A stretch of 64,000 nucleotides of DNA. Source: Candidatus Latescibacterota bacterium. GTDB lineage: Bacteria > Latescibacterota > UBA2968 > UBA8231. The notes beneath the pieces are model-generated. The model did not search any database and was not told the origin of the DNA. It saw only the letters and a program-made list of their open reading frames with translations. Location: positions 4,928,001-4,992,000 of the forward strand of contig OZ242214.1 of NCBI GenBank assembly GCA_965206595.1. Reading direction: 5' to 3'. This document shows, in pieces, positions 39,516 through 64,000 of the stretch. Both the position numbers and the translations under genes were made by a program. The stretch's first letter is position 1; every line of letters begins with the position of its first letter.

Positions 39516-39828
39516 CTAGCCTGCCTGGGTGCGCATAAGCATTCCAAGGTCAAGCGATGGCTGGCACGGCGTCCCCGATTTCGCCTTCACTACACCCCCA
39601 CGTATGCTTCGTGGCTCAACCAAGTCGAGATTTGGTTCAGCATCATTACCCGCCAGGCGGTTCGCCGGGACTCGTTCCGTAAGGTATCGGAGCTCATCGA
39701 GCGAATCGAACGCTACACGGCCAAATGGAACGCCAACGCACACCCTTTCGTCTGGACGGCTACGGCCGATTCCATCCTCGCGAAAATCAAGAGACTTTGT
39801 GAACGAATCTCTGCCGACACAACACTAA
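39516..39828 (+). mobile_element. Partial IS630 copy (3' end of transposase plus right IR), inverted relative to 34782-35954
   Basis: Encodes [12 protein letters not shown]...[10 protein letters not shown]...[10 protein letters not shown], near-identical to the intact copy. Ends in GACACAACACTA. Confidence 0.9.
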
Positions 39829-41771: not shown

Positions 41772-41836
41772 CGACAAACCCAGTAGTCCCACTCTTGGGT
41801 GTCGCTCGGAAATTCTCGACAACCCACTCTATTCGT

Positions 41837-42320: not shown

Positions 42321-42682
42321 GCGGCCGATCCCTCTCGTTGCAGTATTGCCCCTCGAGAGATCCCGCTGTCCCACGCACGACCGGCGGATCGAGCAGACCC
42401 CCCTGGGCGTGCCGTCGGCGCGGGGGAGCTACCGCTTCGATTACCTCCTGCTCAGGTACTGCCAGCGGATGCCGCAGGTTATCGCCGCCCCCATGCTTGG
42501 CATCGCGGCGTCGGCATCCTGCACCGTATCACCGAGCGGGAACGACAGGGGCACCGGATCCGAGGTCTCAAGACGATCGGCATCGATGAGATTCCTACGC
42601 CAAGGACCACCAACCGCGCCCGGTGGAAACCCTTGGCACAAGACGTCTCTATGGCAAGCCGTTGAGAATTCCGGAGATAGCC
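42321..42682 (+). mobile_element. Degenerate ISL3-family remnant
   Basis: CPTH..RIEQTP...YRF...RMP and GLKTIGIDEI segments resemble ISL3 transposase. Ends ...GATAGCC, i.e. a GGCTAT-type IR. Confidence 0.6.
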
Positions 42683-42684
42683 TG

Positions 42685-42724
42685 AAAACAGGAGGCGGAG
42701 GAAGGGCAGAACCCCCTCCTCCGC
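42685..42724 (-). terminator. Rho-independent terminator after the FlgD-tailed protein gene
   Basis: GCGGAGGA/TCCTCCGC stem followed on the minus strand by TGTTTT. Confidence 0.45.
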
Positions 42725-42753
42725 TCGGTGACCCGTCGGCAACCCTCCCCCCT

Positions 42754-44703
42754 TTACTTGAGCAGGGTCATCTTCTTTGTCATCTGATAGTGGCCAACCT
42801 GCAGGCTATAGAAATACAACCCGCCGGCAGCTAGGTCTCCGCTGGCGTTGGTGCCGTCCCACCCAGTGCGATAGGTGCCCCCGGTCAGGTACTCGTTGAC
42901 CAGTGTGGCCACCTTCTGGCCCTGGATGTTGAGGACAGTCATCTTCACAAGGGCCTCCACGGGAACGGCGAACTCGATCGTCGTCTCCGCGTTGAACGGG
43001 TTCGGATACGCCTCGCCCAACACATAGTCATCGGGCGTCACGTCTGAAGAGATTTCCGCGACCGCCGTCGGGAGATCCCTTCCGATCAGAGCCATAGAAA
43101 TCCGGAACGGCAGATGGCCAATCTGATAACCAAAACCATCACCGTGGAATTCCGGTTCAGTAGCCAGAAGATACAGTCCGTCGTGCTCCGAATGCTCGTG
43201 GAGCATATAAACGCCCGTCCCGGTCGCCTGGTTATGCGACGTCGGAGCCTTGGCTGCGTCAACGTGAAGGAGCCCCGCGCCATCGGGGCCGTAGAGCGCC
43301 CCCCAGTGGGGCTGGACCGGGTTTTTCGTACCCTCAGCTACGAAAGCGAACCCCTCGGCACTGCCGGTGAGCACGTGAGCGTCACCATCCAGAGTTGGCT
43401 CAATACCCAGGGCATCTGCTTGGGTTTCATAGATCATGTCGTTGAAGCCGTCCCCGGCATCGTTCATATAGATGAGGTTCCCGTCCCAGTCGACCTTTAA
43501 AGGACTTCTTGTTATCGAATCCGCGCCCCAACCTCCAGCGCAGACGATGAACCCCGAGTCATCGATGTGCATAGTCCCAACCATGCTGGCAACAGGCGAC
43601 GTTGATCCATCCTCGTTGAAGCGCTCGAATACATAGAACGGGCTGATGTCGATGATGTTCGTGACCTCGCCCGTATTAGAATCCAGTTCGTAGATATCGG
43701 AGACCGGGGGATCGGTAAAGAACCCATGGCCCATGTACAGTTTGTTTTCAAAAAATTGGAGCGAATTGAAGATATTCTGGTTATCGTCGACAACAATCCT
43801 CTCTTTCCAACTGGCGGGTGGGTCCCCGAAGCCTTCCATGGGTTCGGCCGTCGTCTGGTCCAGAGAAACGGTGGCGCCAATTATGCCACCATCCCAGAAT
43901 TGGTACGACCACCAGCGGGTGAAGTCGTCCGGATCAACGACAGACCCATGGCTCGTGCCCCCCAGTATCGCTCTTGGGTTCCCGTCAGCGTCCGTCAGGC
44001 CGTAGTTCGGGACTTCGGTGAGCTTGACAAGCTCCATCTCATCGTGTTCCAGGAAATTGCCCGCGGCAATCGAATATCTCATGAAGCTCGCGCCCCCCGC
44101 GCCCAGGTCGGCAACGATTTGCTCTCTCGACCCGCCCGGCCTCGTGCCCAATGTCGCGCCGGTGCCAATGATCCATCCTTCCCCTTGGGCGTTCATGAGG
44201 TAGACAGCGCGCTGCCGCATCCCCCAACCCGAGACGCCTACCCAGTTGACATCATCCAGGTTGTTGATGCCGATAGCGTAGAGGGTGTACGTGCCCGGCT
44301 CGACGGCGTTCTCTTCCCAATCTTTCCCATCCCACGTGCCGCTGTGCGTTCCCTCCTCGAACGTCCCCAGCTCCACCACTCTTACCAGGTTGGGGATCCC
44401 CGCCTTGCGGTTCAGAGCGTGGCCGCCATTTATCTCGGGGATACCAGGGCCGCCCCAGCCGCCCTCGGTGGGCTGATCCTTGGTGTACACCACCAGCCAG
44501 ACGGAGGCACGGCTGCCCCGCAGAGTGAAAGGAATGGTCGCATTGCCGCTGAAATCGTAGCTCACATTCCCCAGATCAATATCCAGCAGTTGCAGCTCCT
44601 CGCTACGCACGTATCGGTAGCCCTCAGTCCCCGCTTGGCCGTAAGCCAGTCCCGCGCAAACCGCGAGGAGGATCATGGACAAAAACATAGCTCTCGGTCG
44701 CAT
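42754..44703 (-). CDS. Secreted protein with N-terminal FlgD-like Ig domain and C-terminal T9SS-type A/FlgD-like sorting domain
   Basis: Signal peptide (..GLAYG-Q). N-terminal WDGKD..G..V.PGTY. C-terminal PTAV..AYPNPFNAETTIEF...GQKVATLV...WDG...GLYFY...KKMTLLK. Confidence 0.85.
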   Translation of the reverse strand: MRPRAMFLSMILLAVCAGLAYGQAGTEGYRYVRSEELQLLDIDLGNVSYDFSGNATIPFTLRGSRASVWLVVYTKDQPTEGGWGGPGIPEINGGHALNRKAGIPNLVRVVELGTFEEGTHSGTWDGKDWEENAVEPGTYTLYAIGINNLDDVNWVGVSGWGMRQRAVYLMNAQGEGWIIGTGATLGTRPGGSREQIVADLGAGGASFMRYSIAAGNFLEHDEMELVKLTEVPNYGLTDADGNPRAILGGTSHGSVVDPDDFTRWWSYQFWDGGIIGATVSLDQTTAEPMEGFGDPPASWKERIVVDDNQNIFNSLQFFENKLYMGHGFFTDPPVSDIYELDSNTGEVTNIIDISPFYVFERFNEDGSTSPVASMVGTMHIDDSGFIVCAGGWGADSITRSPLKVDWDGNLIYMNDAGDGFNDMIYETQADALGIEPTLDGDAHVLTGSAEGFAFVAEGTKNPVQPHWGALYGPDGAGLLHVDAAKAPTSHNQATGTGVYMLHEHSEHDGLYLLATEPEFHGDGFGYQIGHLPFRISMALIGRDLPTAVAEISSDVTPDDYVLGEAYPNPFNAETTIEFAVPVEALVKMTVLNIQGQKVATLVNEYLTGGTYRTGWDGTNASGDLAAGGLYFYSLQVGHYQMTKKMTLLK

Positions 44704-45952: not shown

Positions 45953-46109
45953 GACAAACCGGGCATTCTGAGCGAGGTAGGGTTTTTACGAGAGAATCTT
46001 ACTTGATTCTCTCGTAAAAACCCCTCTCTCACAGCCCCGATAATCAGGGATTCTTGGTATATTGGTGTATACCAATCCGTCACACACTTCCTCTTTACTG
46101 GATGGGCTG

Positions 46110-47795
46110 ATGTTTCGCAAGAAGGATTCGCAACGCACCCTGTTCGAGAGTCGCAACCTGGTGCCTGCGGCCAAGCGGCGGCGCCTGCAGGCGAGCTGGG
46201 CGGAGACCTTTCGTACGCGCGCCTTGCCGCTGATCGATGAAGCGCAGTTCGCGCCCTTGTATTGCGACGACAACGGTCGTCCCAACCAGCCGGTGGCGAC
46301 GGTCTTGGGCGTGCTTCTGCTCAAGGAGATGTTCGCTCTGACCGACGCCGAGGCGCTGGAGCAGCTGGAGTTCAGCCTGCTGTGGCAGCACGCCCTGGAG
46401 CTGACCCCGGACGAGGCCCACCTGGCGCAAAAGACGCTGCATAACTTCCGCGCGCGCTTGCTGGCCCATGACCGCGGCCGGCAGGCCTTCGAGGCGACCA
46501 CGGATGGCATTCTGCAAGCGTTGGGTACGAAGGTCACCCGGCAACGTCTGGATTCCACCCACGTGATCAGCAACATCGCGGTGTTGTCGCGTCTGGGGCT
46601 GTTGTGTGAGACCCTCCGTCACTTTCTGAAGACCCTGGCCGCGGAGCATCCGCGCCTGTACGGGCGGGTGCCGAAGCGCCTGCGCGAGCGCTACCTGAAG
46701 GAGGACGGCAGCGCCACATCCTACCAGGACGCGCCCTCCGGCACGGGCAAGAGGCGGTTGCCGGTGTGCGCCCGCGACCTCTACCGTCTCCATCAGCTGT
46801 GTGCGGGCACCGCGGCGGAGGGCCTGGCATCCTACGCGCTGCTGCAGCGCCTGCTGTGGGAGCAGTGTGAGGTGATCGCGGACAAGCAGCGCCCCTCGAC
46901 CGAGGACGACGACGCCGGCGAAGGCGGCGTGCCGGTGGTGCTGAAGGCGCCTGAGAAGGTCGGCAGCGACTCGCTGCAAAGCCCCTATGATGCCGAGGCC
47001 ACCTACCACGGCCGCAAGGGCAAGGGGTATGAGGTGCAGATCGCCGAGACCTGCGTCGAGACTGACGACGACCAGACTGACGACGACCAGACCGACACCG
47101 TGAACAGGATCACCCACGTAGCGGTGACCGATGCCTGCGCCAGTGACGAGCACGCGACGATGCCGGTGCTGGAGGCCCTCGAAGAGCGCGGGCAACGACC
47201 CGACGAGCTGGTCGCCGACACCGCCTTCGGCTCCGGCGACAACGCCGTCCACGCCGAGCGCCTGGGCACCGAGTTGGTCAGCCCGGTCAAAGGCCCGCAG
47301 GTCGACGTCGAGGAGCGCCCCGATACGGTGACCGAAGCCGACTTCCTCGTCGAGGCCCGTCTCCGGGATCCGGCCATCTGCCCGGCCGGATACCTGGCCC
47401 GCGAGCAGACGCCGTGTGAGAAGAAGTCCCATCACGTGACCCTGACCTTCGAGCGCGAGGGCTGCGAGACCTGCGCCCTGCTTTCCGTCTGCCCGGTGCG
47501 GCCGAACCAGGACGGGGACGGCTACGCCGTAACCGTGGACCTGAAAGCCGTCAACCTCGAACGCCGCCGCCGCGCCATCGCCAGCGGCGCCTTCCGGGAG
47601 CGCTATCGCATTCGCGCCGGCATCGAGGCCACGGTCTCGGAACGGAAACGAAGACACGGGCTGGGCGCCCTGCGCGTGCGCGGGCGTTGGCGCGTAGAGC
47701 TGGCCGTCTACCTCAAAGCCCTGGCTTGCAATTTCAAGAGAATGGTGCGGGCGCTTACGCCCAAACCCGAAGCCATAGCTCCGGCGATGGGCTGA
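46110..47795 (+). CDS. Transposase (IS1182/IS5-like: DUF772-type N-terminus + DDE)
   Basis: NGRPN, QRLDST, SPYDAEATY, LVADTAFG, C..C.L...C and YRIRAGIEATVSE.KR motifs. Confidence 0.9.
   Translation: MFRKKDSQRTLFESRNLVPAAKRRRLQASWAETFRTRALPLIDEAQFAPLYCDDNGRPNQPVATVLGVLLLKEMFALTDAEALEQLEFSLLWQHALELTPDEAHLAQKTLHNFRARLLAHDRGRQAFEATTDGILQALGTKVTRQRLDSTHVISNIAVLSRLGLLCETLRHFLKTLAAEHPRLYGRVPKRLRERYLKEDGSATSYQDAPSGTGKRRLPVCARDLYRLHQLCAGTAAEGLASYALLQRLLWEQCEVIADKQRPSTEDDDAGEGGVPVVLKAPEKVGSDSLQSPYDAEATYHGRKGKGYEVQIAETCVETDDDQTDDDQTDTVNRITHVAVTDACASDEHATMPVLEALEERGQRPDELVADTAFGSGDNAVHAERLGTELVSPVKGPQVDVEERPDTVTEADFLVEARLRDPAICPAGYLAREQTPCEKKSHHVTLTFEREGCETCALLSVCPVRPNQDGDGYAVTVDLKAVNLERRRRAIASGAFRERYRIRAGIEATVSERKRRHGLGALRVRGRWRVELAVYLKALACNFKRMVRALTPKPEAIAPAMG
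47061..47096 (+). repeat. 15-bp tandem duplication inside the transposase (TDDDQ x2)
   Basis: ACTGACGACGACCAG ACTGACGACGACCAG ACCGAC. Confidence 0.8.
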
Positions 47796-53230: not shown

Positions 53231-54925
53231 ATGGGAGTGTCAAACGAACCTTTGGAGGGTCCGTACGGCAGCCGCAGGCGCCTGTTCCGGGGGGGAGCCT
53301 GCCTGGCGCTGGCCGCCCTGGTGGGGGCTTGGCTGTACCGCTTCTGGGGCCACGACATGGTGCGCTCGCTCTACCGGGGTGAATGGCCGTGGCTGTCCCA
53401 CCTGGTAAAACGCCGGGGGGAACACCCGGTCGAGTACTACCTCGAAATCGCCGACCGCGCCGCCTACGGCCTGCTGCTCTGGAGCGTTCTGGTGTTCCTT
53501 TTGTACTGGGCCCTGCGGGAGTTGGCCGGACGCCTGCCCGCCTCGCTGCTGGCCGATCCGCGGTGGCGCCGGCTGACGGCGGCGACCGCCGCGGTCTGGC
53601 TCCTCTTCCTGTTGCGGATCCCCCTCTTTCAGGCGCTTCCCTGGTGGTTCTGGTCGCTCGCCGACAAGCCGCTGCCCCTCTGGTGGCTGTTCGCCTCCCT
53701 CGCCCTGGCGAGCGCCGGGGTCTGGTTCGCCGTGTCGAGCCGGCCCCATCGCCACCTGCCGAACCTGCTGCTGCTCGTCGTTCTCTGCTACACCCTGCAG
53801 ATGGGATTCGCCCTGATGGAAGGGCGCGGCCTGCAGTCGCTGTCCGACCGTCTCAGCGGCAGCGGCGGACATGCGCGACTGGCTCGCGCCGGCACCGAAT
53901 GGACCCCCGGGCACCTGTTGCGGAACTACCCTTCCATGGTCGCCAACCAGGAGCTTCCGCACTTCCCGCACGCCACCAGACCGCCCGGCCCGGTGATCGC
54001 TTTTGCCCTTCTCGATCAGGCTGCCCGCCACCTGCCGATTGCCGGGAACGACCGCCAGGAAGCCGTAGCCCGGCTCGCCGCCCTGCTGTTTCCCCTGATG
54101 GCCTCCCTGACCCTGTTTCCGCTGTGGGGGTTGTGCCGGCTGGCGATCCCCGGCGAACGCGAGGCCTGGATGCCGCTCCTGCTCTACGTCTCGGCCCCGA
54201 GCCTCCTGCTGATGGTCCTCCATCTCGACCAGTGCCTGTTTCCCCTGATCGGCACCACCTTCCTCTACCTGCTGGCACGGGCCCTGACCGCGAACAGGTT
54301 GCTCCCGGCATTCGCCGCCGGGGTCTGTCTGTATGCCGGGGGGTATTTCAGCTTCGGGCTGATCGCCCTGGCGGCCGCCTCGGCGGCGCTGATCCTGCTG
54401 TTCGCCCGCACGCGGCATGCCTGGAGACAGGCCGGAACCGCCGCGGCCGCGCTGCTCGCAGGGGCGGCCCTTGTGCACCTGGCGATGTGGTTCGCTCTCG
54501 GGTACGACGCCCTCGCCCAGTTCCGCTTCGGAATGGCGGCTCACCAGGCCTTCAAGTTCCCGCAGTGGGGTTTCGCCCACACCTTCTATTTCGGCGCCCT
54601 CAACCTCGTCGAGTTCGCGCTCTGGTGCGGACCTGCCCTCGCCCTCCTCTGCGCGGCGCAGCTGCACCGCGCCTGCCGAAGCTGGCCGCCCGGGACCGTG
54701 GCCGACCTGCTGGTGCTGGCGCTGGCCGTCGCCCTGGCGGGGCTCGTTCTGTTCGGGCGCACCGCCGCGGAAACCGCGCGCCTGTGGCTCTTCCTCCTGC
54801 CCCTGGTCGTCATCGCCGGCGCCCGTTACCTCGGTGAAATCACCCCTGGGCGCGGCGCCGGTTTCATCCTCGCGCTGCAGCTGGTCACCGTGCTGGTCCT
54901 CAAGAAGTTCCAGGATCTTTTCTGA
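53231..54925 (+). CDS. Multi-pass membrane protein, GT-C glycosyltransferase-like
   Basis: About 13 TM segments. Periplasmic loop with H..TRPPG, plus HLDQ and ETARLWLF motifs. Confidence 0.55.
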   Translation: MGVSNEPLEGPYGSRRRLFRGGACLALAALVGAWLYRFWGHDMVRSLYRGEWPWLSHLVKRRGEHPVEYYLEIADRAAYGLLLWSVLVFLLYWALRELAGRLPASLLADPRWRRLTAATAAVWLLFLLRIPLFQALPWWFWSLADKPLPLWWLFASLALASAGVWFAVSSRPHRHLPNLLLLVVLCYTLQMGFALMEGRGLQSLSDRLSGSGGHARLARAGTEWTPGHLLRNYPSMVANQELPHFPHATRPPGPVIAFALLDQAARHLPIAGNDRQEAVARLAALLFPLMASLTLFPLWGLCRLAIPGEREAWMPLLLYVSAPSLLLMVLHLDQCLFPLIGTTFLYLLARALTANRLLPAFAAGVCLYAGGYFSFGLIALAAASAALILLFARTRHAWRQAGTAAAALLAGAALVHLAMWFALGYDALAQFRFGMAAHQAFKFPQWGFAHTFYFGALNLVEFALWCGPALALLCAAQLHRACRSWPPGTVADLLVLALAVALAGLVLFGRTAAETARLWLFLLPLVVIAGARYLGEITPGRGAGFILALQLVTVLVLKKFQDLF

Positions 54926-56081
54926 CGATCGGCGAAGCGAGACGGTCCGCGAGGATCCGCGCCGACAGCTCGTGGCCGAGCGCCGTGAAGTGTCCGTAGC
55001 CGCCGTGGTAGATCCCGTTTCCCCTTTCGACCTGCTCGATGAACAGCTCGCGCGGATAGGCGTGGTCGATCCGCAGCCCGGCCAGTTTTTTGAGGATCCC
55101 GCTCTCGATGCGCGCCCTGTCCCGGCGAAAGACAGGGCGCCGCGCCCCCGGGTCGCGGCGATAACGCCGGATGTCGATGACGTCCTGAAGGAGCAGGGGA
55201 TCGGGAATCAGATAGACGAAAAAGCCAATTTTCCGCTGCCGCAGATGGCCGGCGATCCCGTCGAGCAAGCGCCCGGCAACCGCGATCATGTCCTGCAGAT
55301 GAACCTCCGACGCGCCGAGGTCCGGGGTGGCGATCATGCCGGCGTCCCGCGCCAGGGCGGCGATCCCCGGGTTGGCCTTTACGGCGTGCTTCCAGGCCAG
55401 CCGCGCGACCACGGAACGGGCCAGCACGTTGTCCCGGAGCCAGGACCGCAGCGAATAGGGGGGAGCCGGGGAAAAGGTCAGCTCGCCGTCCGCCAGGTCG
55501 AAGCGGGGGACCGATGCCGAGGCGAGGGGGGCGAAGTTGTCCTGCAGGTCGTTGCCGAGGAAGAGGACGAGCACCACGATGTCCGGGTTACATTCGGCGG
55601 CGCGCTCGCGCACGGTGAGGAAGTGGGATCCGAGACCGTAGCCGTGCACCCCCCAGTTCACCGCCTCGACCTCGCCGGCGCCACGCCGCGACAGGTCGCG
55701 CGCCATGCGCTGGGAGAAGTTCGCCTCGAGGTCGACCTGGTAGGCCTCGAGGAAGGAATCCCCGAGAAACAGGATGCGGCGGCGGCCTGCGGCCGGCCGC
55801 GTCGCCCGTTCGCGATCGTGAAATCCGCGGCTGTTCGTGGTCACTACCCGCGGGGGGCCCTCCACTTCGCGAGTCCAGGGAATGCTCAGGTGGGGCCGCC
55901 CGCGAAAACCCAGGAGCTCGTCGTACTCCAGGGTGGCGTGCTCGACTTTGACGACCCGGGGCAGCAGCAGCTCTGCCAGCAGCAGGACCGCGGCCGTCGC
56001 CGCGGCCGCGACGGCGCAATTCACCGCCAGGGTGCGCCACCGGGAAGAGCTGCGGCCGGACCTGTCGGAGATCTCCGTCAC
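54900..56081 (-). CDS. Membrane-anchored SGNH/GDSL hydrolase (AlgX/AlgJ-like)
   Basis: N-terminal TM segment; NSRGFHD, FLGDSF, NWGVHGYG, LGND and GHFT..GH motifs. Confidence 0.8.
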   Translation of the reverse strand: MTEISDRSGRSSSRWRTLAVNCAVAAAATAAVLLLAELLLPRVVKVEHATLEYDELLGFRGRPHLSIPWTREVEGPPRVVTTNSRGFHDRERATRPAAGRRRILFLGDSFLEAYQVDLEANFSQRMARDLSRRGAGEVEAVNWGVHGYGLGSHFLTVRERAAECNPDIVVLVLFLGNDLQDNFAPLASASVPRFDLADGELTFSPAPPYSLRSWLRDNVLARSVVARLAWKHAVKANPGIAALARDAGMIATPDLGASEVHLQDMIAVAGRLLDGIAGHLRQRKIGFFVYLIPDPLLLQDVIDIRRYRRDPGARRPVFRRDRARIESGILKKLAGLRIDHAYPRELFIEQVERGNGIYHGGYGHFTALGHELSARILADRLASPIVRKDPGTS

Positions 56082-56157
56082 CGGCAGGACGAAATCCTGT
56101 GGAATGTTCCCGGCGCCGGTACGGTTCGCTTCCCGAAGGGAACCCGCATCTTCCCCC

Positions 56158-58098
56158 CTACCTGACGGCTATGAAGTAGTGGATGACGAACCAGACCCCC
56201 GAGGTGGCGAACTGCCCGAGAATGACCCCGATGAAGAAGGGCCTCGTGGTCACGTACAGCTTCACCCCTCCGTATTTCACGATCGCGGTCTTGAACAGCC
56301 AGCCGAGAAAGACGCTGAAGAAGGCCGAGCCGAAAACCGCGCTCAGGGGTAGCCCCAGGGGATGCAGGGGCCACCAGAGAAAGCGCTGCCGGGCCAGCAT
56401 CAGCAACCCCATGGCCGCGGCGCCGATCCCGGCAAAACCCCAGTTCTCCCAGTGCGGCCCCTCCAGCGACTGGATACGGGCGGAGGCGTTCTCGAAAGGA
56501 TAGCGGGCTCCCCAGCCGAAGAAGAAGCCGTCGGTATTGATCCCCCCGTGGGTGTAGGCCAGGGTCAGTATCGTCCAGATGGAGCTGGCGATGCTGACGG
56601 CGATGGCGATCATGATGGCCAGGAATACCATGCGCCTGTTCGACCTGATGGTCTCCTCTGCCATCTTCAGTCCGTTGGCGCACGAGGCCATCACGAAGGT
56701 GAGGATGTCGCTGGCCCAGACGTAGGTAAAGGAGAGCGAGATGATGCCCGACTGCCCCAGCGCCCGGGTGCCGATGCCGGCGGCGACGAAGTCCGACGCG
56801 ATCATCGGTGCGTAGTTCCACGCCAGCCCTCCCTCGGCGACCACGCGCGTGATGGCCACGAACAGGGCGAAGGCGAAGAACAGGTAGATCGGCACGATCC
56901 AACCCGGCAGTCCGCTCTGCGCCAGCCAGACCCCCATGAACAGCAACGAGCCGAGCAGCGTGAACGCCGCGGCGCGGTAGGACATGATCTCGCCCCCGTC
57001 GTCGACGCCGGGATCGCCGAGAAAGGCGCGGCGGAACACCCTGTACAGATGGCCCCTGGCGGTCCACAGGCCGAACAGCACCAGCACCATGAAGGCGCCG
57101 AATCCCTGCAGGGTCAGGATCGAGTCGGCGTGGCGGCTGTAGACCCCGAACAGGGGATCGACGCGCTGGATGCCGATGGTGTTGAACACCCCCTGCTGAA
57201 CCACCCCGAACAGGTAGAAGAACCAGAGGCTGAAGGCGACGTTGCGGTTGATGAAATAGGCGAACCCGACCAGCTGGAAGCTGACGCTGAACTGGACGTC
57301 GACGGTGTCGCGGAAGAGCGGCAGGTATCCCCCCCAGAGGGAGATGCGCTCGATGAACGGGTAGTAGGTCGACAGCCGGTTGTTGCTGTAGATGAGGGCG
57401 GTTATGGCGAAACCCGCCCACATCAGGGGGTTCCTGAACAGCGGCTTTATCAGGGAGGGTTTGGACTCGTCATCCTCGATCATCGCCAGCGGCACCTGCA
57501 CGAGCGGGTAGATCAGGCGCTCGTTGACGATCCACTGGCGCCGCAGAATCACCATGATCGCGATCATCGCCAGGTAGAGCGCGAAGATGAACGGCAGCCA
57601 CCAGGCCAGCGGCGGCAGCCACAGCTCCCACGGGATGCCCTGCCCCTGCGGCGCTCCCTCGTAGAAGTACTTGATCTGCTCGAAGTCGTGATGCGGGATC
57701 ATCCAGCCCGGTATGAACGGGAACAGGCTGTCCCAGTTGTTCTCCGGGGTGGCGTAGTAAATGACGCTGGTTATGTGGGGCAGCAGAAACGAGGTGAGGC
57801 CGCGCTCGGGAATCGGGGTTGCGATGATCCACATGATGTAGATCAAGGCGAGCTCGGAGCGCCTCAGCATCCATTGCCGGCGCAGGGCGCCGACGAATGC
57901 GTTCAACAGGAAGACGAGGTAGAAGAACAGGATGAGAGCCGCTGCCGTGGTCATCAGGGCGGCTATGCGCTCGCCGTAGAGCATCATTCCGACGTAGGGA
58001 ACGCCGGTGCCGATGGCGACCGAGCCGATAGTGCCGACGATCAGGGAGCGCAGTGTTACCCCGCGGGCAACCCTTTCTGTTTTCGACTCCGTTTCCAC
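56158..58098 (-). CDS. DUF6785/DUF6784 family multi-pass membrane protein (OPT-like transporter candidate)
   Basis: GVTLRSL..G, YYATPENNW, ILRRQW...E.L.YP and WWPLHPLG motifs. Paralog of 39825-41771. GTG start at 58098 inferred. Confidence 0.8.
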   Translation of the reverse strand: METESKTERVARGVTLRSLIVGTIGSVAIGTGVPYVGMMLYGERIAALMTTAAALILFFYLVFLLNAFVGALRRQWMLRRSELALIYIMWIIATPIPERGLTSFLLPHITSVIYYATPENNWDSLFPFIPGWMIPHHDFEQIKYFYEGAPQGQGIPWELWLPPLAWWLPFIFALYLAMIAIMVILRRQWIVNERLIYPLVQVPLAMIEDDESKPSLIKPLFRNPLMWAGFAITALIYSNNRLSTYYPFIERISLWGGYLPLFRDTVDVQFSVSFQLVGFAYFINRNVAFSLWFFYLFGVVQQGVFNTIGIQRVDPLFGVYSRHADSILTLQGFGAFMVLVLFGLWTARGHLYRVFRRAFLGDPGVDDGGEIMSYRAAAFTLLGSLLFMGVWLAQSGLPGWIVPIYLFFAFALFVAITRVVAEGGLAWNYAPMIASDFVAAGIGTRALGQSGIISLSFTYVWASDILTFVMASCANGLKMAEETIRSNRRMVFLAIMIAIAVSIASSIWTILTLAYTHGGINTDGFFFGWGARYPFENASARIQSLEGPHWENWGFAGIGAAAMGLLMLARQRFLWWPLHPLGLPLSAVFGSAFFSVFLGWLFKTAIVKYGGVKLYVTTRPFFIGVILGQFATSGVWFVIHYFIAVR

Positions 58099-58123
58099 TC
58101 GGCCCCGTGAGATCGCGAGACCG

Positions 58124-60382
58124 CTAGTGGCCGCGGGCGTGATAGGTTGCGGGGTTCTTGCCGGTCGCGGAGCCACCCAGCTCGAAGGGTCTGAAGGAAT
58201 GCGCAGTCAAGGTCGCATCCCCTTCCCTGATCCGCAGCAGCGTGTTCATCCCCACCTCCTCGAATCGCTGCGTCGTGCCGCTGGCCGGCCAGAAGATCTC
58301 GAGCGCCTCGACGGCGTCGGCCCGGCCCAGGCCGATTTCCCGCCGCATGCTGGAGGCGCCGAAGCTGCCGCCCCCGGACACCCGCGAATGAACCACGCGG
58401 GGGCCGTCCTCCGTGCGCAGGTGAACTTCGATGCGGGCGCCGATAGCGTCCCGGTTGGACTGCACTCCTTCCAGCTCGAGCTTGAGCCAGTGGTTGCCGT
58501 GGCCGGGGTTCTCGAACAGCACGTTCTGGTAGACATCGCCGGTGAAGGCGCCGCCCATCACCGCGCAGACCTCCTGATCGCCATCGTGATCGAGATCGCC
58601 GAAGGCGATGCCGTGACCCTTTTGCAGATGCCCGAAACCACCGGAACTGGTGACGTCCTGGAAGAACTGCCCGGCGGCGTTGCGGAACATGCGGTTGGGC
58701 ATGACGGAGATCAGGCCGGGGTCGCCGGTGCCGAGATAGCAGTCCGGGTACCCGTCGTTGTCGAGATCGCCGTAGTTGCTGCCCATGGTAAGCAGAGGCT
58801 TGTCGAGCCGGGCGGCGGCAGTGACGTCGGCAAACGTGCCGTCCCCGTTGTTGCGGTAGAGGCGCGGGTGCTCCGCCGTGTTCGCCAGCCCCAGGTAGTC
58901 GGCGGCTACGTCGGTAGGGCGAGCCTTGTAGCCGGAGACGAAAATGTCCAGCCAGCCGTCGTTGTCGTAGTCCCAGAACCAGCCCGGAAAGCTGCGTGGC
59001 GGACCGGGCACGCCTGCTGCTTCCGTCACGTCCGCGAAACGCCGCGAGCCGTCCCCGCCGGCCCCATTGCGGAACAGCAGGTTGGACTCCTTCGGGTTGA
59101 GGCGCGACAGGTACAGATCAAGCAGTCCGTCGTTGTCGTAATCCCCCCACACCACGCCCTTCACATATCCCTCCACGGCCAGACCCGTAGCCGCGGCGCG
59201 ATCGCGAAAGGTGCCGTCGGCCTTGTTGTGGAACAGCTCGCACGGATGCCGCTCGGCGCCGAAAGATTCGTTGCCGATGTAGAGATCCAGCCAGCCGTCG
59301 TTGTCGTAATCTCCCCAGGCGGCAGTCTGCGTCGGGTGCAGGGTGAGGATGCCGGCCGCTTCGGTGACGTCATCGAAACGGCTGCCCTCCAGGTTTCTCA
59401 GCAGTGAATTGGGGTGGCGGCCTCCGTCCGTAGCGGGCGGGCGGTTGAGCCAGGCTCCCCGCAGGATGAGCGCGTCGGAATAGCCGTCGTTGTCGTAGTC
59501 GGCCTGCTTGCTGTTGAGGCCGCCGACGAGGCCTCCCAGGCCGGCGGTTTCCGTCCGATCGGCAAAGGTGCCATCCCCGTTGTTGCGGAAGTAGCGCAGC
59601 GGATCGCGCCGGCCCCAGGAGCAGACCATGATGTCGAGGTGTCCATCGCGGTCGAAGTCCTCCATGACAACACCCCCGGACAGCCCTACCAGATCCAGGC
59701 CCAGCGCCGGAGCCACGTCGCGAAAACGGCCGATGTCGTAATCGGATTCAAAGAGATGGGGCGGCATCAGCTGTTCCGGAGGCACCGACTCCGGGTATTC
59801 ACCCAGGTTCATGTAGGCGATGTTGAGCAGCCAGCGGGAAGAAAGATCGTCCGGGTTGCGCTGCAGCACTCCTTCGAATTCGGCGACCGCCGCCCGCGCG
59901 CCACCCGGCAGCGCGTGCGCGCCGGCGCCGGAGATGGGAAACAGGCAGGATTCGGTGTTGTGATTGAGGATGCAGTTGTCCTGCTCTCCCAGGCGGAGAT
60001 AGGCAAGCCCCAGAAAGATCTGCAGGCGGTGCTGCATTTGGCGCCCGCTCGCCTCCGCCTGCAGCCGGCGGAATTCCGCAATCGCCTCCGCCGACCGACC
60101 GTCGAGCAGCAGTTCGTTGGCCAAATTGACGCGGGTCTTGAAGAGCTGCGACTTGACGCGGGGGTCCAGCGGGTCGGCGGCCTTGCGCAGGCGCGCCACT
60201 TCATCGCGGAAGTGCCGCACTCGCACGTCGTTGGCGTACGGATGGGCGAGCGGCTCGACGTCCTCGGCGATCTCGATCAGCCGCCGCGCCATGCGCCGGG
60301 TTCCTTCGGTCCTGGTGTCGGCAGGCGGTTCCCGGCAGGCCGCGTGGGCGAGAAAGGATGCTGCCAGCAGAAGCAGCGTCAT
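58124..60382 (-). CDS. CRTAC1 family lipoprotein (N-terminal TPR-like region, FG-GAP repeats, ASPIC/UnbV)
   Basis: Lipobox-like HAAC, GEQDNC...CLFPI, repeated DYDNDG and SNRDAIGARI...IGLG...WP.SG motifs. Confidence 0.9.
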   Translation of the reverse strand: MTLLLLAASFLAHAACREPPADTRTEGTRRMARRLIEIAEDVEPLAHPYANDVRVRHFRDEVARLRKAADPLDPRVKSQLFKTRVNLANELLLDGRSAEAIAEFRRLQAEASGRQMQHRLQIFLGLAYLRLGEQDNCILNHNTESCLFPISGAGAHALPGGARAAVAEFEGVLQRNPDDLSSRWLLNIAYMNLGEYPESVPPEQLMPPHLFESDYDIGRFRDVAPALGLDLVGLSGGVVMEDFDRDGHLDIMVCSWGRRDPLRYFRNNGDGTFADRTETAGLGGLVGGLNSKQADYDNDGYSDALILRGAWLNRPPATDGGRHPNSLLRNLEGSRFDDVTEAAGILTLHPTQTAAWGDYDNDGWLDLYIGNESFGAERHPCELFHNKADGTFRDRAAATGLAVEGYVKGVVWGDYDNDGLLDLYLSRLNPKESNLLFRNGAGGDGSRRFADVTEAAGVPGPPRSFPGWFWDYDNDGWLDIFVSGYKARPTDVAADYLGLANTAEHPRLYRNNGDGTFADVTAAARLDKPLLTMGSNYGDLDNDGYPDCYLGTGDPGLISVMPNRMFRNAAGQFFQDVTSSGGFGHLQKGHGIAFGDLDHDGDQEVCAVMGGAFTGDVYQNVLFENPGHGNHWLKLELEGVQSNRDAIGARIEVHLRTEDGPRVVHSRVSGGGSFGASSMRREIGLGRADAVEALEIFWPASGTTQRFEEVGMNTLLRIREGDATLTAHSFRPFELGGSATGKNPATYHARGH

Positions 60383-60492
60383 TGGTGGCGGTTATCGACA
60401 GCACCGCGGAGCCGGCGTCGATGCGTCGCGCGCCCGGATAGGGGAACCGCCGGTTGGCTGGAAGTCACCGACCGCGACCCGAAAGCTCTGTT

Positions 60493-62103
60493 TCAACCAT
60501 TGGGCGTGCCCCCCGGGCCGGTATCGGCCATCGCCTCGGCCTCTGCGAAGCCGATCTCCAGCCGCACTTCGTTCAGGAAAACCGGTTCGAAGCGAGGGAC
60601 GCTCCCCTTGACGAGGCGTACCACCAGTTCATTTCCCCCCTTGACGATCGACCGGGCGCCGACATCGAACTGAATCAGCGTGCCCTCGACGCGCTCCTGC
60701 TGCATGGTCGTATGGTATACCTCGCCGTCGAACACCGTGTGCCCCCAACCTTCGTTTGAAACCCGGCGCATATCCCACGCCACCGGCTCGCCATTGATAC
60801 TCAAGTCCAGCGCATCCCCCTCCACGAAATGGTTGAAACCGAGACTCAAGGTGCAGGAATCGAGAGCTCCTTCCGACCGGGCCGTGGCCACGTCGTCCGC
60901 GATGTCCAGGGTCAGCACGGCCCCGCCGCCGGGCTCCGTCTCCTCCATGAACACCGGCAGCGAAGCCCAGGGAAGGGCGTACCGAAACGCCCCGACATGG
61001 TGCTCCTTGCTGCCGACGCGGTCGGAATGATCGAGCTCGTAGCGCTTGTTCAGGCGGGGGAGCCGCCGCCGGTCGACCATGTTGCCGAGCACCCGCTTCT
61101 TCCACTCGTTCGGGGTGTTGAAGTAGTTGAACAGGTAGAACCCGTCGACCCCGGCCTCGAGGAACCGCGCCGCCAACGCGTAGAGCACCTCCTCGTCCAA
61201 GGCCCACCGCAGCGCCTCGAAGCTCCCGTAGATCAGGCAGTCGGTCCCCTCCGCCACCTCGACGAACTCGCGGATCGGCTGCTCGAACGGCAGGAAGCCG
61301 CCGCCCGCGGCGACGATGTCGACCAGTCCTTCCGAGATCCAGGTCTCGACGTCCAGTCCGATCCGCCTGGCGTCGTAGAGCGTCGGCGGCACGCGCACCA
61401 GCAGATCGAGATGCCTGCCCCGCTTCTCGCCGACCTCGTCCAGGCGCCGCCGGATGCGCCGTACGAAGTCCGTCATCAGGTAGCGGTTGGAGCAGGCCTC
61501 TTCGATCCGGAAGAAGGCCGGATGCCGGAAGTAGTCGAGCTCGATGCCGTCGACGTCGAAGCGTTCGCACAGTTCGAAAACGATTTTCTCCATGTGCTCG
61601 CGAACGCCGGGAAACTTGTAGTCCACCCCGCGGGCGATGGCGTATTCGAGCGTGGGCCGGGGGATGTACTCGTGAGGCTGGCCTATGAGCCATTCAGGGT
61701 GATCGCGCCGAAACCGGCCATGAGCGGGCGAATCGTAAGGGATGTCGTAGTGGCTGTTCATGCGCAGCGAAGGCAGCACGTCGATGCCCGCCCCGTGAAA
61801 CTGCCGGGTGATCTCCCTCATCGGGCCGCCGGAGGACTCGATCAGGCTGCGGAGATTTCGCTGCGTCCATGAAAAACGTTCCTCCGCGAACTGCTCGCAG
61901 CCATCGCCGATGCGTTCCCCGACCTCGGTTTCGTAAGCGAAGGTCTCGCTGTTGCCGACGCACCACGACACCCCGCCCACGGGCGAACCGGGGTAGGTGG
62001 CGACCATGCGCTCCGCAATGGTTTCGGGCCTGACCGGTGCGGTCCGGAGGTCCATGATCCAGCCGTCGTCGTTGCTGATGATCCTGCACTCTTTGTCTGT
62101 CAT
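60493..62103 (-). CDS. GHL10/DUF187-like TIM-barrel protein (putative glycoside hydrolase)
   Basis: IISNDDG, SLRMN, VDY...GVR, FDVDGIELDYFR, GLDVETW..EGLVD and GVDGFYLFN motifs. Paralog of 28843-30468. Confidence 0.75.
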   Translation of the reverse strand: MTDKECRIISNDDGWIMDLRTAPVRPETIAERMVATYPGSPVGGVSWCVGNSETFAYETEVGERIGDGCEQFAEERFSWTQRNLRSLIESSGGPMREITRQFHGAGIDVLPSLRMNSHYDIPYDSPAHGRFRRDHPEWLIGQPHEYIPRPTLEYAIARGVDYKFPGVREHMEKIVFELCERFDVDGIELDYFRHPAFFRIEEACSNRYLMTDFVRRIRRRLDEVGEKRGRHLDLLVRVPPTLYDARRIGLDVETWISEGLVDIVAAGGGFLPFEQPIREFVEVAEGTDCLIYGSFEALRWALDEEVLYALAARFLEAGVDGFYLFNYFNTPNEWKKRVLGNMVDRRRLPRLNKRYELDHSDRVGSKEHHVGAFRYALPWASLPVFMEETEPGGGAVLTLDIADDVATARSEGALDSCTLSLGFNHFVEGDALDLSINGEPVAWDMRRVSNEGWGHTVFDGEVYHTTMQQERVEGTLIQFDVGARSIVKGGNELVVRLVKGSVPRFEPVFLNEVRLEIGFAEAEAMADTGPGGTPNG

Positions 62104-62144
62104 CGACAGTCGCCTTTCAGCCTGGTTCAGGCCGCGTTGCGGCT

Positions 62145-62990
62145 TCACACCCCGGAAGTTTCGAACCCCATTTCGACCAGGAATGCGACCATGCGCCGCA
62201 GCCGCGGGTTGTCGTTGTTGATGTAGGACTCGGCGGGATGGAAGCCGAACCTGTGTTGCGCGTAGAGCTCGCGCACCAGGTCGAGCTGTTCCTCCGTCCG
62301 GGGGTGGGCCACGAAGTTGACCGCGTGCTGGTGGCGCCCCGGTTTGCCGCCGAAGACCGCGTGCACCACGTCTTCGTGGAAGACGACCACGTCCCCCGGT
62401 TCGGTCTCCAGGGGCACGCACGGCACCTCCTCCGGGCGCAGCCCGAAGGGGCGGAAAGCGGGGTCGTTCCGGCGCTTGCGCAACAGCGCGAACGGATCGC
62501 TTTCCCCGACCCGATGGCTGCCGGGTATCACCCGCAGGCAACCGGTGTCCCGCGTCAGCGCCTGAGGATAGAAGGCGATCTTGATCTCGGGCAGAACCTG
62601 CGATGTGCGCCCGTTCCCTCCGTGCCACGGGGTGTCGCCGCCGTGCAGGTTTCCTTCGGTTCCATCGAGAAAGAAGTCGGGCCCGAGAAGGTCTTCCCCG
62701 CGGCCGTAGACGCGGTCGTCGGCAGGCAGCCGCGAGAGCAAGGGGCCGCGCTCGAAAAAGGGCTGGAGCGCCCGAGCGCCCGGATGGTCGACTCCCTCGG
62801 CGGCCATGACTTCCGCGGCCTCGCGTTGCAGGCTGCCCGCCTCCGAGGCGCTCAGCAGGCCCCGCAGCACCAGGTATCCGAAGACGTGCATGTGCTCCAA
62901 CTGACCCGGCGTGAGCAGGGTCAGGCCGTCGCTCACCCCGCGCGACACCGGGGGAAGATCTTCCGCGTGAACCTGTTCGCCCGTCGACAT
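62145..62990 (-). CDS. PhyH-family Fe/2OG enzyme with HxG motif (candidate halogenase)
   Basis: FGYLVLRG, GDTPWHGG, GCLRVIPGSH, PGDVVVF and VHA motifs. Confidence 0.8.
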   Translation of the reverse strand: MSTGEQVHAEDLPPVSRGVSDGLTLLTPGQLEHMHVFGYLVLRGLLSASEAGSLQREAAEVMAAEGVDHPGARALQPFFERGPLLSRLPADDRVYGRGEDLLGPDFFLDGTEGNLHGGDTPWHGGNGRTSQVLPEIKIAFYPQALTRDTGCLRVIPGSHRVGESDPFALLRKRRNDPAFRPFGLRPEEVPCVPLETEPGDVVVFHEDVVHAVFGGKPGRHQHAVNFVAHPRTEEQLDLVRELYAQHRFGFHPAESYINNDNPRLRRMVAFLVEMGFETSGV

Positions 62991-63002
62991 CGACGCCCTC
63001 CT

Positions 63003-64000
63003 TCAGGGCTCCCCGGCACCGGCCCGCCGCGGTGCCGGAAAGGTTCCGTAGGTGACGATGACCTCCAGGTCTTCGACGGCGATCTCGGAACCGATGTTCT
63101 CCGGGCGTCCCTGCAACACCAGGGAGAGAACGTTCTCCCCCTGCCGCGGCCGCAGCGAGCGCAGGTCGAACGCCAGCCACTGTCCCATGTAGGGGTCGAC
63201 GGTATGAAGCGCGGAGCGAGTGCAGGTCTCGCCCGCCAGGGACACCCCGTTCAGGGATACCTCGAGCCTGTCCGCGCTCAACAGGTCGCTGACGCCGAGG
63301 CGCAGCGTCACCTCCTGCACCTGGGCATTCTCGAGGTCGTCGGCGACGTAGAACGGCAGCTGAAAGGATTTCCCGGCGTCGGCCTGGGGCAGTGCCAGGG
63401 GCAGGTGCGCCCGGTAGTCGTGCCCGCCCGCGGCTTCGCTCGTGCGCCGCAGGAAATAGTGCTTGTCCCCCTCGGCGACGAGGTCGGGATCCCCCAGCTC
63501 GGTCAGGGTGTTGCGCTCGCTCTCGCCAAGCGGCCAGGAAAGGAACCAGGTGTAGAGTCCGTCGGCCCCTCGCGCCCGGTTGTTGGCCGCAGCCGCCCGC
63601 ACCATGGCCGGGGAGGCGTTGGTCACACCGTGGAATTGCCTGCTGCCGTCGCTGTAGTACGGCTGCAGCATGGAGTAGACGGAAACGCCGTGGGCGTGCG
63701 CCGCCTCGACGAGCCAGTCCGTCGGCATGTGGGAATCGATGACGAAATAGACGTAGACGAGCGGCACGACGTAGTCGACGAGCCCCTCCTCGAGCCAGGC
63801 GCGCACGTCGAGGCCGGTCTTGAGGTTCAGCTCCTCGGTCGGGTAGACGCGGGCTCCCAGCTGGCCCGGGTTCCCGGGCCGCTGGCGCACCATGCGCGAG
63901 ATCCTGCGCACGTAATCGGTCATCAGCGGGGTGTGCTCCTCGACGTCCTCCGGCTGGAGCCAGAAGCTGGTACCGGCCGGTGCCGCGGCGAAATCGAGCT
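63003..64000 (-). CDS. GHL10/DUF187-like TIM-barrel protein; 5' part outside the window
   Basis: (E)LDF at the window edge; GLDVRAWLEEGLVD, GADGLY and GDKHY motifs; C-terminal GENVL beta-sandwich. Confidence 0.7.
   Translation of the reverse strand, partial: LDFAAAPAGTSFWLQPEDVEEHTPLMTDYVRRISRMVRQRPGNPGQLGARVYPTEELNLKTGLDVRAWLEEGLVDYVVPLVYVYFVIDSHMPTDWLVEAAHAHGVSVYSMLQPYYSDGSRQFHGVTNASPAMVRAAAANNRARGADGLYTWFLSWPLGESERNTLTELGDPDLVAEGDKHYFLRRTSEAAGGHDYRAHLPLALPQADAGKSFQLPFYVADDLENAQVQEVTLRLGVSDLLSADRLEVSLNGVSLAGETCTRSALHTVDPYMGQWLAFDLRSLRPRQGENVLSLVLQGRPENIGSEIAVEDLEVIVTYGTFPAPRRAGAGEP

Follow-up and report, generated by a model that had tools for sequence, protein, structure and literature searches.

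Gene content of the cluster

The 64,000-nucleotide stretch analysed here (the window) spans positions 4,928,001-4,992,000 of the single-contig genome of a Candidatus Latescibacterota bacterium, which is 7.05 Mb in size with a GC content of 0.637 and a completeness of 92.9%. Six minus-strand open reading frames (ORFs) occupy its end (54900-64000) and encode two glycosidase-like proteins (GHLa and GHLb), a PhyH-family protein, a CRTAC1-type protein, a membrane protein of the families DUF6785 and DUF6784, and a candidate SGNH-type hydrolase. The same families are found in a different order at 27566-44703, and we refer to that cluster as copy 1 and to the present one as copy 2. We propose that copy 2 is an import-then-cleave catabolic locus for glycosides of sialic or ulosonic acids, assembled from three recurring submodules, and put the probability of this reading at roughly 0.5. 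The six genes are as follows (aa, amino acids):

54900..56081, minus strand: SGNH-type hydrolase candidate, 393 aa; Lipase_GDSL_2 below the Pfam cut-off; last gene of the cluster
56158..58176, minus strand: DUF6785 plus DUF6784 polytopic membrane protein, 672 aa (Pfam); start at 58098 by codon usage
58124..60382, minus strand: CRTAC1-type protein, 752 aa, with a TPR-like N-terminus, FG-GAP_3 and UnbV_ASPIC (Pfam)
60493..62103, minus strand: GHLa, 536 aa, GH156-like; GHL10 below cut-off, homology to PDB 6rzd
62145..62990, minus strand: PhyH-family variant, 281 aa (Pfam PhyH), between the two GH156-like genes
63003..64000, minus strand: GHLb, 3' two-thirds of a 490-aa protein; no Pfam family on the cut ORF

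The ORFs have a coding-type GC content at third codon positions (0.83-0.89) and are separated, counting from the SGNH side, by 76, about 25 (or an overlap), 110, 41 and 12 bp. Their GC content ranges from 0.63 to 0.69, compared with a genome value of 0.637 and 0.57-0.60 in copy 1, confirming the initial annotation of six tightly spaced minus-strand genes at core-genome GC. Scans of the cluster found no promoter-like site and nine terminator-like sites, all within genes, against 5.8 ± 2.8 in shuffled sequences. Read in the genome, the cluster continues beyond the window end, and the GHLb gene extends to the window-equivalent position 64475 (L001:1003-2475). NCBIfam has no family for the SGNH, DUF6785, GHLa, PhyH and GHLb proteins, nor for the 883-, 1029-, 564- and 354-aa proteins of copy 1 and the flanking regions introduced below. 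Copy 2 is a real operon-like cluster of smaller recurring gene pairs and not a fixed six-gene system.

GH156-like proteins

GHLa and GHLb had been labelled GHL10-like. At its full 490 aa, GHLb passes the curated Pfam cut-off for GHL10 (29.8 bits against 27.9) and GHLa remains below it (21.3 bits); both proteins are better read as GH156-like, GHLb as a divergent member of the GH156/GHL10 superfamily. GHLa alone matches the GH156 sialidase EnvSia156 (PDB 6rzd) with E 5.8e-21, and a profile of GHLa and its relatives does so with E 3.4e-53 (profile positions 14-367 on chain residues 13-390), compared with E 7.5e-11 for the same profile against the GHL10 peptidoglycan hydrolase Cwp19. GHLb likewise matches 6rzd (E 6.4e-11) and Cwp19 (E 4e-6). 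An AlphaFold (AF2) model of GHLa, with a predicted local distance difference test score (pLDDT) of 90.2, shares the (beta/alpha)8 barrel and C-terminal beta-sandwich with EnvSia156 (PDB 6RZD/6S00; PMC6254351, PMC6811678). Foldseek aligned this model to 6s00_A with E 3.6e-34 and TM-scores of 0.72/0.78 (0.72-0.79 on superposition), against a fold E-value of 6e-13 and TM-scores of 0.43-0.64 for Cwp19, with PgaB-type domains among the lower fold matches.

EnvSia156 is described as using Asp14 as base and His134 as acid, together with a carboxylate triad of Arg129, Arg202 and Asn346 and a buried Arg246 (PMC6811678). The homology of GHLa extends over the catalytic domain, and all six residues have their equivalents in it (in the same order D13, H118, R114, R193, N326 and R237), conserved in 39-40 of 40 sequences comprising GHLa and 39 database relatives: the Asp is kept in 39, the His in 40, and the equivalents of R114, R193 and N326 in 40 each. 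Both GHL proteins are relatives of the GH156 inverting exo-sialidase, and exo-sialidase activity is a prediction from sequence and model. The intact carboxylate triad of GHLa points to a glycoside of a sialic or other ulosonic acid as the substrate. GHLa nevertheless differs from EnvSia156 in being only about 20% identical in the structural alignment and in having a changed +1 aromatic pocket, where the equivalents of Phe203, Phe278 and Trp279 are His, Gly and Phe. It also lacks a signal peptide, which many GH156 homologues are reported to have (PMC6254351). Signal peptides are likewise absent from the GHLb and PhyH sequences, and GHLa begins at strand beta-1; without an export signal on any of the three proteins, their substrate must be imported.

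The GHL family comprises 27 full-length paralogues in this genome, of which roughly 10 keep the sialidase-type set; nearly all lack a signal peptide, their sequences opening with strand beta-1. The GH156 family is a recent one, published from a hot-spring metagenome and from gut metagenomes, and the gut preprint proposes Kdn, Pse, Leg, Kdo and Dha as possible substrates of its members (10.1101/2022.06.28.497753).

The DUF6785/6784 membrane protein

The protein encoded at 56158-58176 matches DUF6785 (E 7e-122) and DUF6784 (E 7e-24) in Pfam. Its AF2 model, built on 41 paralogues plus orthologues, has a pLDDT of 87.7 and a predicted TM-score of 0.90, and its best Foldseek matches in the PDB are to the barley Yellow-Stripe protein YS1 (7wst_A and 7wsr_A; E 2.5e-8 and 5.5e-8; TM-score 0.64-0.71), the next match having E 9e-3 and a TM-score of 0.12. 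On the strength of this model, DUF6785 and DUF6784 together would form the same overall fold as the OPT/Yellow-Stripe (YSL) transporters (barley YS1, PDB 7WST), likewise as a single polytopic polypeptide of similar size. The two are only 14-15% identical, however, and the Pfam OPT family has no match in the DUF6785 protein at E<=0.01, where only DUF6785 and DUF6784 are reported. DUF6785 differs from OPT/YSL also in its massive expansion (26-76 per Latescibacterota genome) and in its placement among genes of sugar and sugar-acid catabolism. We propose that DUF6785/6784 is an inner-membrane importer, a role predicted from the modelled fold; a literature search found no paper naming DUF6785.

Pfam annotation of the neighbours covered 100 of the 200 genes lying within three genes of a DUF6785 gene. 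These 100 include five MR_MLE enolases, four PhyH proteins, two xylose-isomerase-like TIM barrels (one also UxuA), two GFO_IDH_MocA and two BNR_2 proteins, and one each of DHDPS, sulfatase, polysaccharide deacetylase, CBM9 and aldose epimerase, families that indicate a catabolic context. A luciferase-like monooxygenase is also among the neighbours.

In a tree of the DUF6785 paralogues, the copy-2 gene falls in a three-gene clade with 100% support, each member of which has a GHL gene 1-4 kb away. Mapped onto this tree, the label "GHL within three genes" requires one change against 3.9 in shuffles (reached in 0/1000), and the label "GHL within 10 kb" (7/37 genes) four changes against 6.6 (p 0.009), while the CRTAC1 label is not clade-bound (p 0.36-0.40). 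Because kin share labels, the tree shows a GHL-linked transporter clade and not repeated independent gain. The closest paralogue of the copy-2 gene (61% identity; L006, genome 921,802-941,801) adjoins a GHL10-positive gene (E 5e-11). Two TPR genes, a CRTAC1 gene, a barrel-family gene and one for a FlgD/CHU_C-tailed protein are no more than 10 genes away, a layout like that of copies 1 and 2.

The PhyH, CRTAC1 and SGNH proteins

The PhyH protein matches its Pfam family with E 2.3e-13 over profile positions 129-201 only. Like the PhyH-family Fe(II)/2-oxoglutarate oxygenases PHYHD1 and EctD, it has the proximal His, the distal His (H210) and the Arg (R219). Aligned with ectoine hydroxylase, though, its sequence reads WHGG in place of WHSD (H123-G-G in place of HxD), so that the Asp of HxD is Gly and the HxD/E...H triad is incomplete. 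The subfamily comprises 925 proteins at E<=1e-10. The Asp position was compared in 120 aligned members, of which 58 have G, 18 D, 15 A, 13 S and 9 P. All 120 keep W122 and H123, and 119 keep each of E206, H210 and R219, E206 being the Glu four residues before the distal His. As judged from these alignments the iron site is altered, and a relocated carboxylate (E206) seems likelier than a halogenase-type site. Known halogenases keep Ala or Gly at the Asp position of HxD. We ranked the halogenase reading of HxG low, since the position varies among G, D, A, S and P and an invariant Glu nearby offers another possible ligand. An analogy to KanJ, described as a dioxygenase that deaminates an amino sugar, was set aside; a literature search found no paper that treats KanJ together with phytanoyl-CoA dioxygenase.

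The 752-aa protein contains FG-GAP_3 in five stretches (E 1e-40) and UnbV_ASPIC at residues 646-716 (E 3.7e-12), and matches human CRTAC1 (9etn_A, E 2.5e-12). It resembles the CRTAC1/ASPIC-UnbV proteins in combining FG-GAP_3 repeats, with DxDxDG-type calcium motifs, and UnbV_ASPIC. It differs from them by an N-terminal extension, for which TPR_16 and TPR_19 scored below threshold (E 4e-4 and 3e-3) and residues 1-235 gave a language-model match of 0.94 to TPR clusters; these faint signals hint that the N-terminus (about residues 1-230) may be helical and TPR-like. A neighbouring 1007-aa protein, encoded beyond the window end, carries TPRs at its C-terminus instead. We take the N-terminus of the 752-aa protein, MTLLLLAASFLAHAAC, to be a type-I signal peptide with the cut between AHA and A, a reading that suits it better than a lipobox, which would be non-canonical; the 1007-aa protein presumably is a lipoprotein with the canonical lipobox LAFAAGC. 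Where bacterial CRTAC1/UnbV_ASPIC members come up in two earlier reports, the relevant passages list the domain and give it no function (PMC3174227, PMC3909097).

The SGNH candidate matches Lipase_GDSL_2 with E 7e-5 over profile positions 1-83 of 178. Its sequence contains the GDSF and GND blocks and, further on, a His within GHF, and it opens with a hydrophobic segment that would anchor it in the membrane.

Comparison with copy 1

By BLASTP, copies 1 and 2 are 40% identical in DUF6785, 25-35% in GHL and 28% in CRTAC1, and show no significant similarity between the PhyH pair (E 0.03) or the SGNH pair (E 0.07). This deep divergence indicates that the loci have families in common and not recent ancestry, as had been stated at the outset. 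The accompanying claim of a Rosetta-stone fusion, in which separate CRTAC1 and TPR genes of copy 1 are joined in copy 2, holds for a different gene from the one named. The N-terminus of the 752-aa protein has no similarity to the TPR protein of copy 1 (E 0.05), whereas the 1007-aa CRTAC1-TPR fusion is 43% identical to the CRTAC1 of copy 1 and its TPR part matches that TPR protein (E 1.7e-10), with a domain order (propeller then TPR) equal to the gene order in copy 1.

The copy 1 stretch (27566-47795) has a GC content of 0.57-0.60 against 0.64-0.70 around it, contains an IS630-type transposase (34782-35870) and is bordered by another transposase (46062-47795), and its DUF6785 protein is 83% identical to a paralogue at 3.72 Mb in the genome. 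Copy 1 seems to have been copied from another locus and to be mobile or to have moved recently.

Linkage of the families within the genome

Genes were called genome-wide with a home-made caller based on codon usage (5192 genes, 81% coverage), which makes all gene-neighbour counts approximate, and the labels outside Pfam (GHL, CRTAC1, barrel, SGNH and others) come from profiles built on the window's own genome. The genome holds 47 DUF6785 matches, 38 of them full-length genes, 39 UnbV_ASPIC matches in Pfam and, by our own profiles, 42 CRTAC1, 32 GHL (27 of >=200 aa), 32 barrel-family and 6 SGNH-like genes. Our PhyH profile gave 186 matches and looked over-inclusive; a Pfam search gave at least 151, about 3% of genes, so that the expansion is real. 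For a 7-Mb genome this is an extreme expansion of Fe/2-oxoglutarate oxygenases. Linkage was assessed by permutation against random gene sets, 3000 of them in the adjacency test. The numbers of the 38 full-length DUF6785 genes with each family within 10 kb are:

CRTAC1: observed 11, expected 3.1, p 0.0005
TPR: observed 8, expected 2.8, p 0.005
GHL: observed 7, expected 2.8, p 0.017
Barrel family: observed 4, expected 1.3, p 0.05
PhyH: observed 16, expected 12.8, p 0.17
SGNH: observed 2, expected 0.5, p 0.10
FlgD-tailed: observed 5, expected 5.6, p 0.67

The functional module around DUF6785 put forward in the initial annotation therefore receives support for CRTAC1 and GHL and none for PhyH, SGNH or the FlgD-tailed proteins, which by these permutations are not enriched in the genome near DUF6785. 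Even for the enriched families, 27/38 DUF6785 genes have no CRTAC1 and 31/38 no GHL within 10 kb. The strongest associations are between pairs of other genes: GHL and PhyH are immediate neighbours in 8/27 cases against 1.8 expected and lie within three genes in 14/27 against 4.65, and CRTAC1 and TPR are adjacent in 13/42 against 0.58, both adjacency values being reached by 0/3000 random sets. DUF6785 adjoins CRTAC1 in 4/40 cases against 0.63 expected (p 0.004) and GHL in 3/40 against 0.49 (p 0.016), with GHL within three genes in 6/40 against 1.36 (p 0.002).

A fixed set recurring at DUF6785 did not hold up. CRTAC1, GHL and PhyH together are found at 2/38 DUF6785 genes within 10 kb and at 3/38 within 15 kb (0.45 expected, p 0.012), and with SGNH added at 2/38 within 15 kb (0.18 expected, p 0.015). 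Besides copies 1 and 2, the set is borne by a third locus about 40 kb past the window (L028, genome 5,022,382-5,042,381), all three being in one stretch of about 90 kb, and the gene order is kept at 1/11 loci compared below. The third locus has a truncated DUF6785 (526 aa plus a 66-aa piece) with a GHLb-type gene, a PhyH gene and a CRTAC1 gene within 10 kb.

Neighbouring genes

Upstream of GHLb, beyond the window end, the following genes were found, in this order:

L001:2519-3010 (window-equivalent 64519-65010), minus strand: ABC permease fragment, 163 aa; BPD_transp_1 E 5e-12, profile positions 64-178 only
Upstream of the permease fragment: 1007-aa lipoprotein, CRTAC1 propeller with strong C-terminal TPRs
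After the 1007-aa gene: 694-aa FlgD_ig/CHU_C-tailed protein, divergent
After the 694-aa gene: 354-aa protein, no family match
After the 354-aa gene: 662-aa TPR protein
After the 662-aa gene: 883-aa protein, no Pfam or NCBIfam match
After the 883-aa gene: 1099-aa F5/8-type-C protein with CHU_C tail
After the 1099-aa gene: SurA-like peptidyl-prolyl isomerase (PPIase)

The 883-aa protein is 23% identical over 917 residues (E 3e-46) to the 1029-aa protein of copy 1, a homology that places a barrel-family gene upstream of copy 2; the initial annotation had pointed to this side of the cluster for barrel-family and FlgD-tailed genes, and both are present there. The ATP-binding cassette (ABC) permease fragment sits between the GHLb gene and the 1007-aa gene; at the closest related locus (L037), the equivalents of these two genes lie about 110 bp apart with no such fragment between them. 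The fragment may be a remnant of an ABC-type import route. On the other side of the cluster, a 564-aa polytopic membrane protein encoded on the plus strand (window 53231-54925) is convergent with the SGNH gene, the two overlapping by 26 bp; it belongs to no Pfam or NCBIfam family, has a single copy in the genome and is found in the same place at the closest related locus (85% identity).

Occurrence in other genomes and phyla

Eleven loci carry a relative of the copy-2 DUF6785 gene. The complete order, with a citrate synthase gene and the gene for the 564-aa membrane protein, is found only in the closest of them (L037, 93% identity), which is also the only one in which SGNH lies next to DUF6785. 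More distant loci keep parts of it: CRTAC1-DUF6785 in L038 (81%), DUF6785-GHL in L036 (84%), and a CRTAC1-like gene adjoining DUF6785 in L041 and L042. Four others at 61-66% identity (L039, L043, L044 and L045) share the order 883-aa protein, SurA-like PPIase, DUF6785, to which L043-L045 add 354-aa, FlgD-tailed and F5/8-C proteins, and have no GHL, PhyH or CRTAC1 gene at the locus. As the 883-aa and PPIase genes of the window's genome lie 15-25 kb upstream, the block of GH156-like, PhyH and CRTAC1 genes looks inserted between them and DUF6785. Three other Latescibacterota chromosomes have 26, 49 and 76 DUF6785 matches.

We compared 79 GHL loci from Latescibacterota, Dehalococcoidia, Poribacteria, Gemmatimonadota, Acidobacteriota, Planctomycetes and others. 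PhyH lies within 8 kb in 26/79 and a second GHL in 20/79, and read from the coordinates a PhyH ORF abuts GHL in 9/79, in three phyla. Orthologues of GHLa with 75-76% identity (L070-L075) are found in metagenome-assembled genomes (MAGs) of both Latescibacterota and Dehalococcoidia; this identity across phyla (L071, L072 and L075 against L070 and L073) is far closer than expected and suggests lateral transfer. A PhyH of another type adjoins GHLa in L070 and L073. In Dehalococcoidia, a GHLa-type gene (44%) and a PhyH gene of the copy-2 type (52%) stand together at two loci, L112 and L129, alongside genes for a DHDPS-family lyase, a GNAT protein, a PfkB kinase and large Opp-type SBP_bac_5 binding proteins. 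Genes for a GHLb-like protein and a GFO_IDH_MocA oxidoreductase are further neighbours in L112. The presence of a lyase and a kinase next to the glycosidase is consistent with a pathway that frees a 2-keto-3-deoxy acid sugar and splits it by aldol cleavage. The Opp-type binding protein in Dehalococcoidia and the OPT-fold permease here would be alternative import routes. We know of no earlier study of a GH156-PhyH enzyme partnership. GH156 transcripts have been reported in Dehalococcoidia symbionts in a sponge context (PMC13200403), and lineages of Latescibacterota, Dehalococcoidia and Poribacteria are credited with degrading both complex and host-derived glycans (PMC8163846, PMC13200403).

A putative import-then-cleave locus

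Gene structure, predicted folds, active-site conservation and adjacency statistics form the basis of the proposed locus, and from them we infer transport, the substrate class, the succession of steps and whatever part CRTAC1/TPR and SGNH may play. Its three submodules would be the DUF6785/6784 inner-membrane importer with the OPT/Yellow-Stripe fold; exported CRTAC1-type calcium beta-propellers, paired or fused with TPR, which may bind the substrate or act as its scaffold, either in the periplasm or on the cell surface; and cytoplasmic GH156-like glycosidases with a PhyH-family Fe/2-oxoglutarate oxygenase. We predict that the upstream surface and outer-membrane proteins (FlgD/CHU_C-tailed, 883-aa barrel-family and SurA-like PPIase) capture a glycoconjugate, from which a membrane-anchored SGNH esterase may strip O-acyl groups, and that DUF6785 takes up a small acidic glycoside. 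Since GHLa, GHLb and PhyH need an imported substrate, the adjacent OPT-fold protein is the obvious candidate importer. In the cytoplasm, GHLa would use the inverting Asp/His mechanism of GH156 to release a terminal acid sugar of the sialic or ulosonic type, and GHLb, with its different active site, and the oxygenase would handle the remainder. The roles given here to CRTAC1/TPR, SGNH and the oxygenase are suggested by gene position.

Such a locus resembles the polysaccharide utilization loci (PULs) of Bacteroidota in that many paralogous loci per genome combine surface or outer-membrane proteins, a transporter and glycan-active enzymes, with variable cargo enzymes. It differs in that the constant element is an OPT-fold inner-membrane protein and the glycosidases are predicted to be cytoplasmic, and in that the outer-membrane part consists of an uncatalogued barrel family and FlgD/CHU_C-tailed proteins; a Pfam scan of the six cluster genes and nine upstream genes detected neither a SusC/SusD pair nor any family of TonB-dependent receptors.

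A number of observations weigh against the proposed locus. Two members counted in the GHL-linked DUF6785 group (D5655783 and D5658728) lie at one locus, which reduces the clade to three loci instead of four, and the clade-bound linkage can be explained by duplication of whole loci without repeated selection. The full gene order is kept in 1/11 loci with a relative of the copy-2 DUF6785. The linkage was examined across genomes in one second Latescibacterota chromosome (G001, 5.5 Mb), which has 15 UnbV_ASPIC matches, about 15 GHL genes and 26 DUF6785 genes in 23 regions: GHL is present in 0/23 regions and CRTAC1 in 3/23 (two directly adjacent), where simple arithmetic predicts about 1.4 of 26 genes for either, and PhyH is present in 4/23 and the barrel family in 5/23. 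The DUF6785-GHL link accordingly does not generalise to this chromosome, and the CRTAC1 link is weak there. Across the 79 GHL loci, DUF6785 lies within 8 kb in only 5, all from Latescibacterota; given the abundance of PhyH, its presence in 26 of them may be near background. Within 8 kb of the GHLa orthologues at L070-L075 there is no DUF6785 gene, no GHLb-like gene and no PhyH gene of the copy-2 type. Turning to the proteins, GHLb retains the equivalents of the Asp, R114 and R237 and lacks those of the acid His, Arg202 and Asn346; the PhyH protein, lacking the canonical Asp, could be inactive; and the SGNH assignment is that of a candidate, with 23.8 bits against a Pfam cut-off of 32.9. Finally, NanE (PF04131) and the N-acylglucosamine 2-epimerase (AGE, PF07221) are unmatched in this 92.9% complete genome, which argues against Neu5Ac as a nutrient. 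For this reason we dropped the designation "Neu5Ac utilisation locus" and kept the more general one of an ulosonic acid.

Three alternative explanations have to be set beside the proposed import-then-cleave locus. Copy 2 could belong to a dedicated, conserved multi-family system of GHL10-like, PhyH, CRTAC1/TPR, DUF6785 and SGNH genes built around DUF6785 and independently re-created twice within 64 kb. Both copies do hold all five families, the three- and four-family sets exceed expectation within 15 kb, copy 2 has barrel-family and FlgD-tailed genes on its upstream side just as copy 1 does, and L037 keeps the whole order. The last case is not an independent one, however, as that locus is about 90% identical; the set is limited to two or three loci within about 90 kb of one genome, is missing from 10/11 loci with a DUF6785 relative and lacks its GHL component in all 23 DUF6785 regions of G001; PhyH, SGNH and the FlgD-tailed genes are not enriched near DUF6785; and the PhyH and SGNH pairs of the two copies are not detectably similar. 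We therefore regard such a system as unlikely. An equally modest chance attaches to the opposite extreme, that tight clusters without a common function arise by juxtaposition where there are 38 DUF6785, about 42 CRTAC1, about 27-32 GHL and more than 150 PhyH genes. These very large expansions, the background frequency of PhyH near DUF6785, and an arrangement that is poorly conserved among relatives and missing in G001 speak for chance. It accounts poorly for same-strand genes at 12-110 bp spacing with no intervening promoter- or terminator-like signal beyond chance, for GHL-PhyH and CRTAC1-TPR adjacencies that random sets never reached, for the tree-bound link of GHL to one DUF6785 clade, and for the recurrence of the GHLa-type/PhyH-type pairing in Dehalococcoidia.

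A role in remodelling the cell envelope, in which the cluster trims or recycles the cell's own wall or capsule glycans and DUF6785 imports fragments or exports precursors, appears to us very unlikely. SGNH enzymes include O-acetyl esterases of wall glycans, and this would suit remodelling, as would the matches of the GHL profile and model to Cwp19, the PgaB-type domains among the lower fold matches, and the syntenic 564-aa membrane protein in L037. Yet GHLa is far nearer to GH156 than to Cwp19 by TM-score and has the carboxylate triad of the sialidase intact, neither GHLa nor GHLb carries an export signal, and the annotated genome-wide neighbours of DUF6785 are catabolic enzymes.

Beyond the import-then-cleave locus itself, a more speculative reading would make DUF6785/6784 a new bacterial branch of OPT-fold importers and the main uptake hub of Latescibacterota, at 26-76 copies per genome. 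One DUF6785 clade would be specialised in supplying an unrecognised cytoplasmic pathway, where imported glycoconjugates of sialic or ulosonic acids are broken down by signal-less GH156-like enzymes and by a PhyH protein whose iron site has been rearranged; in Dehalococcoidia, Opp-type ABC transporters would supply the same two kinds of enzyme; and the CRTAC1-TPR propellers would serve as extracytoplasmic substrate-binding partners of the importer. Taken jointly, these proposals are tentative, and that all of them should be correct is doubtful.

With these analyses DUF6785/6784, which has had no function on record, gains a predicted fold, a genomic role and a testable substrate class. The presence of about 27 mostly signal-less GH156-like paralogues with several active-site variants in one genome suggests that this fold is used far beyond secreted sialidases. 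As the families of the cluster are expanded in Latescibacterota and occur also in MAGs of Dehalococcoidia and Poribacteria, their assignment bears on how the genomes of these uncultured lineages are read.

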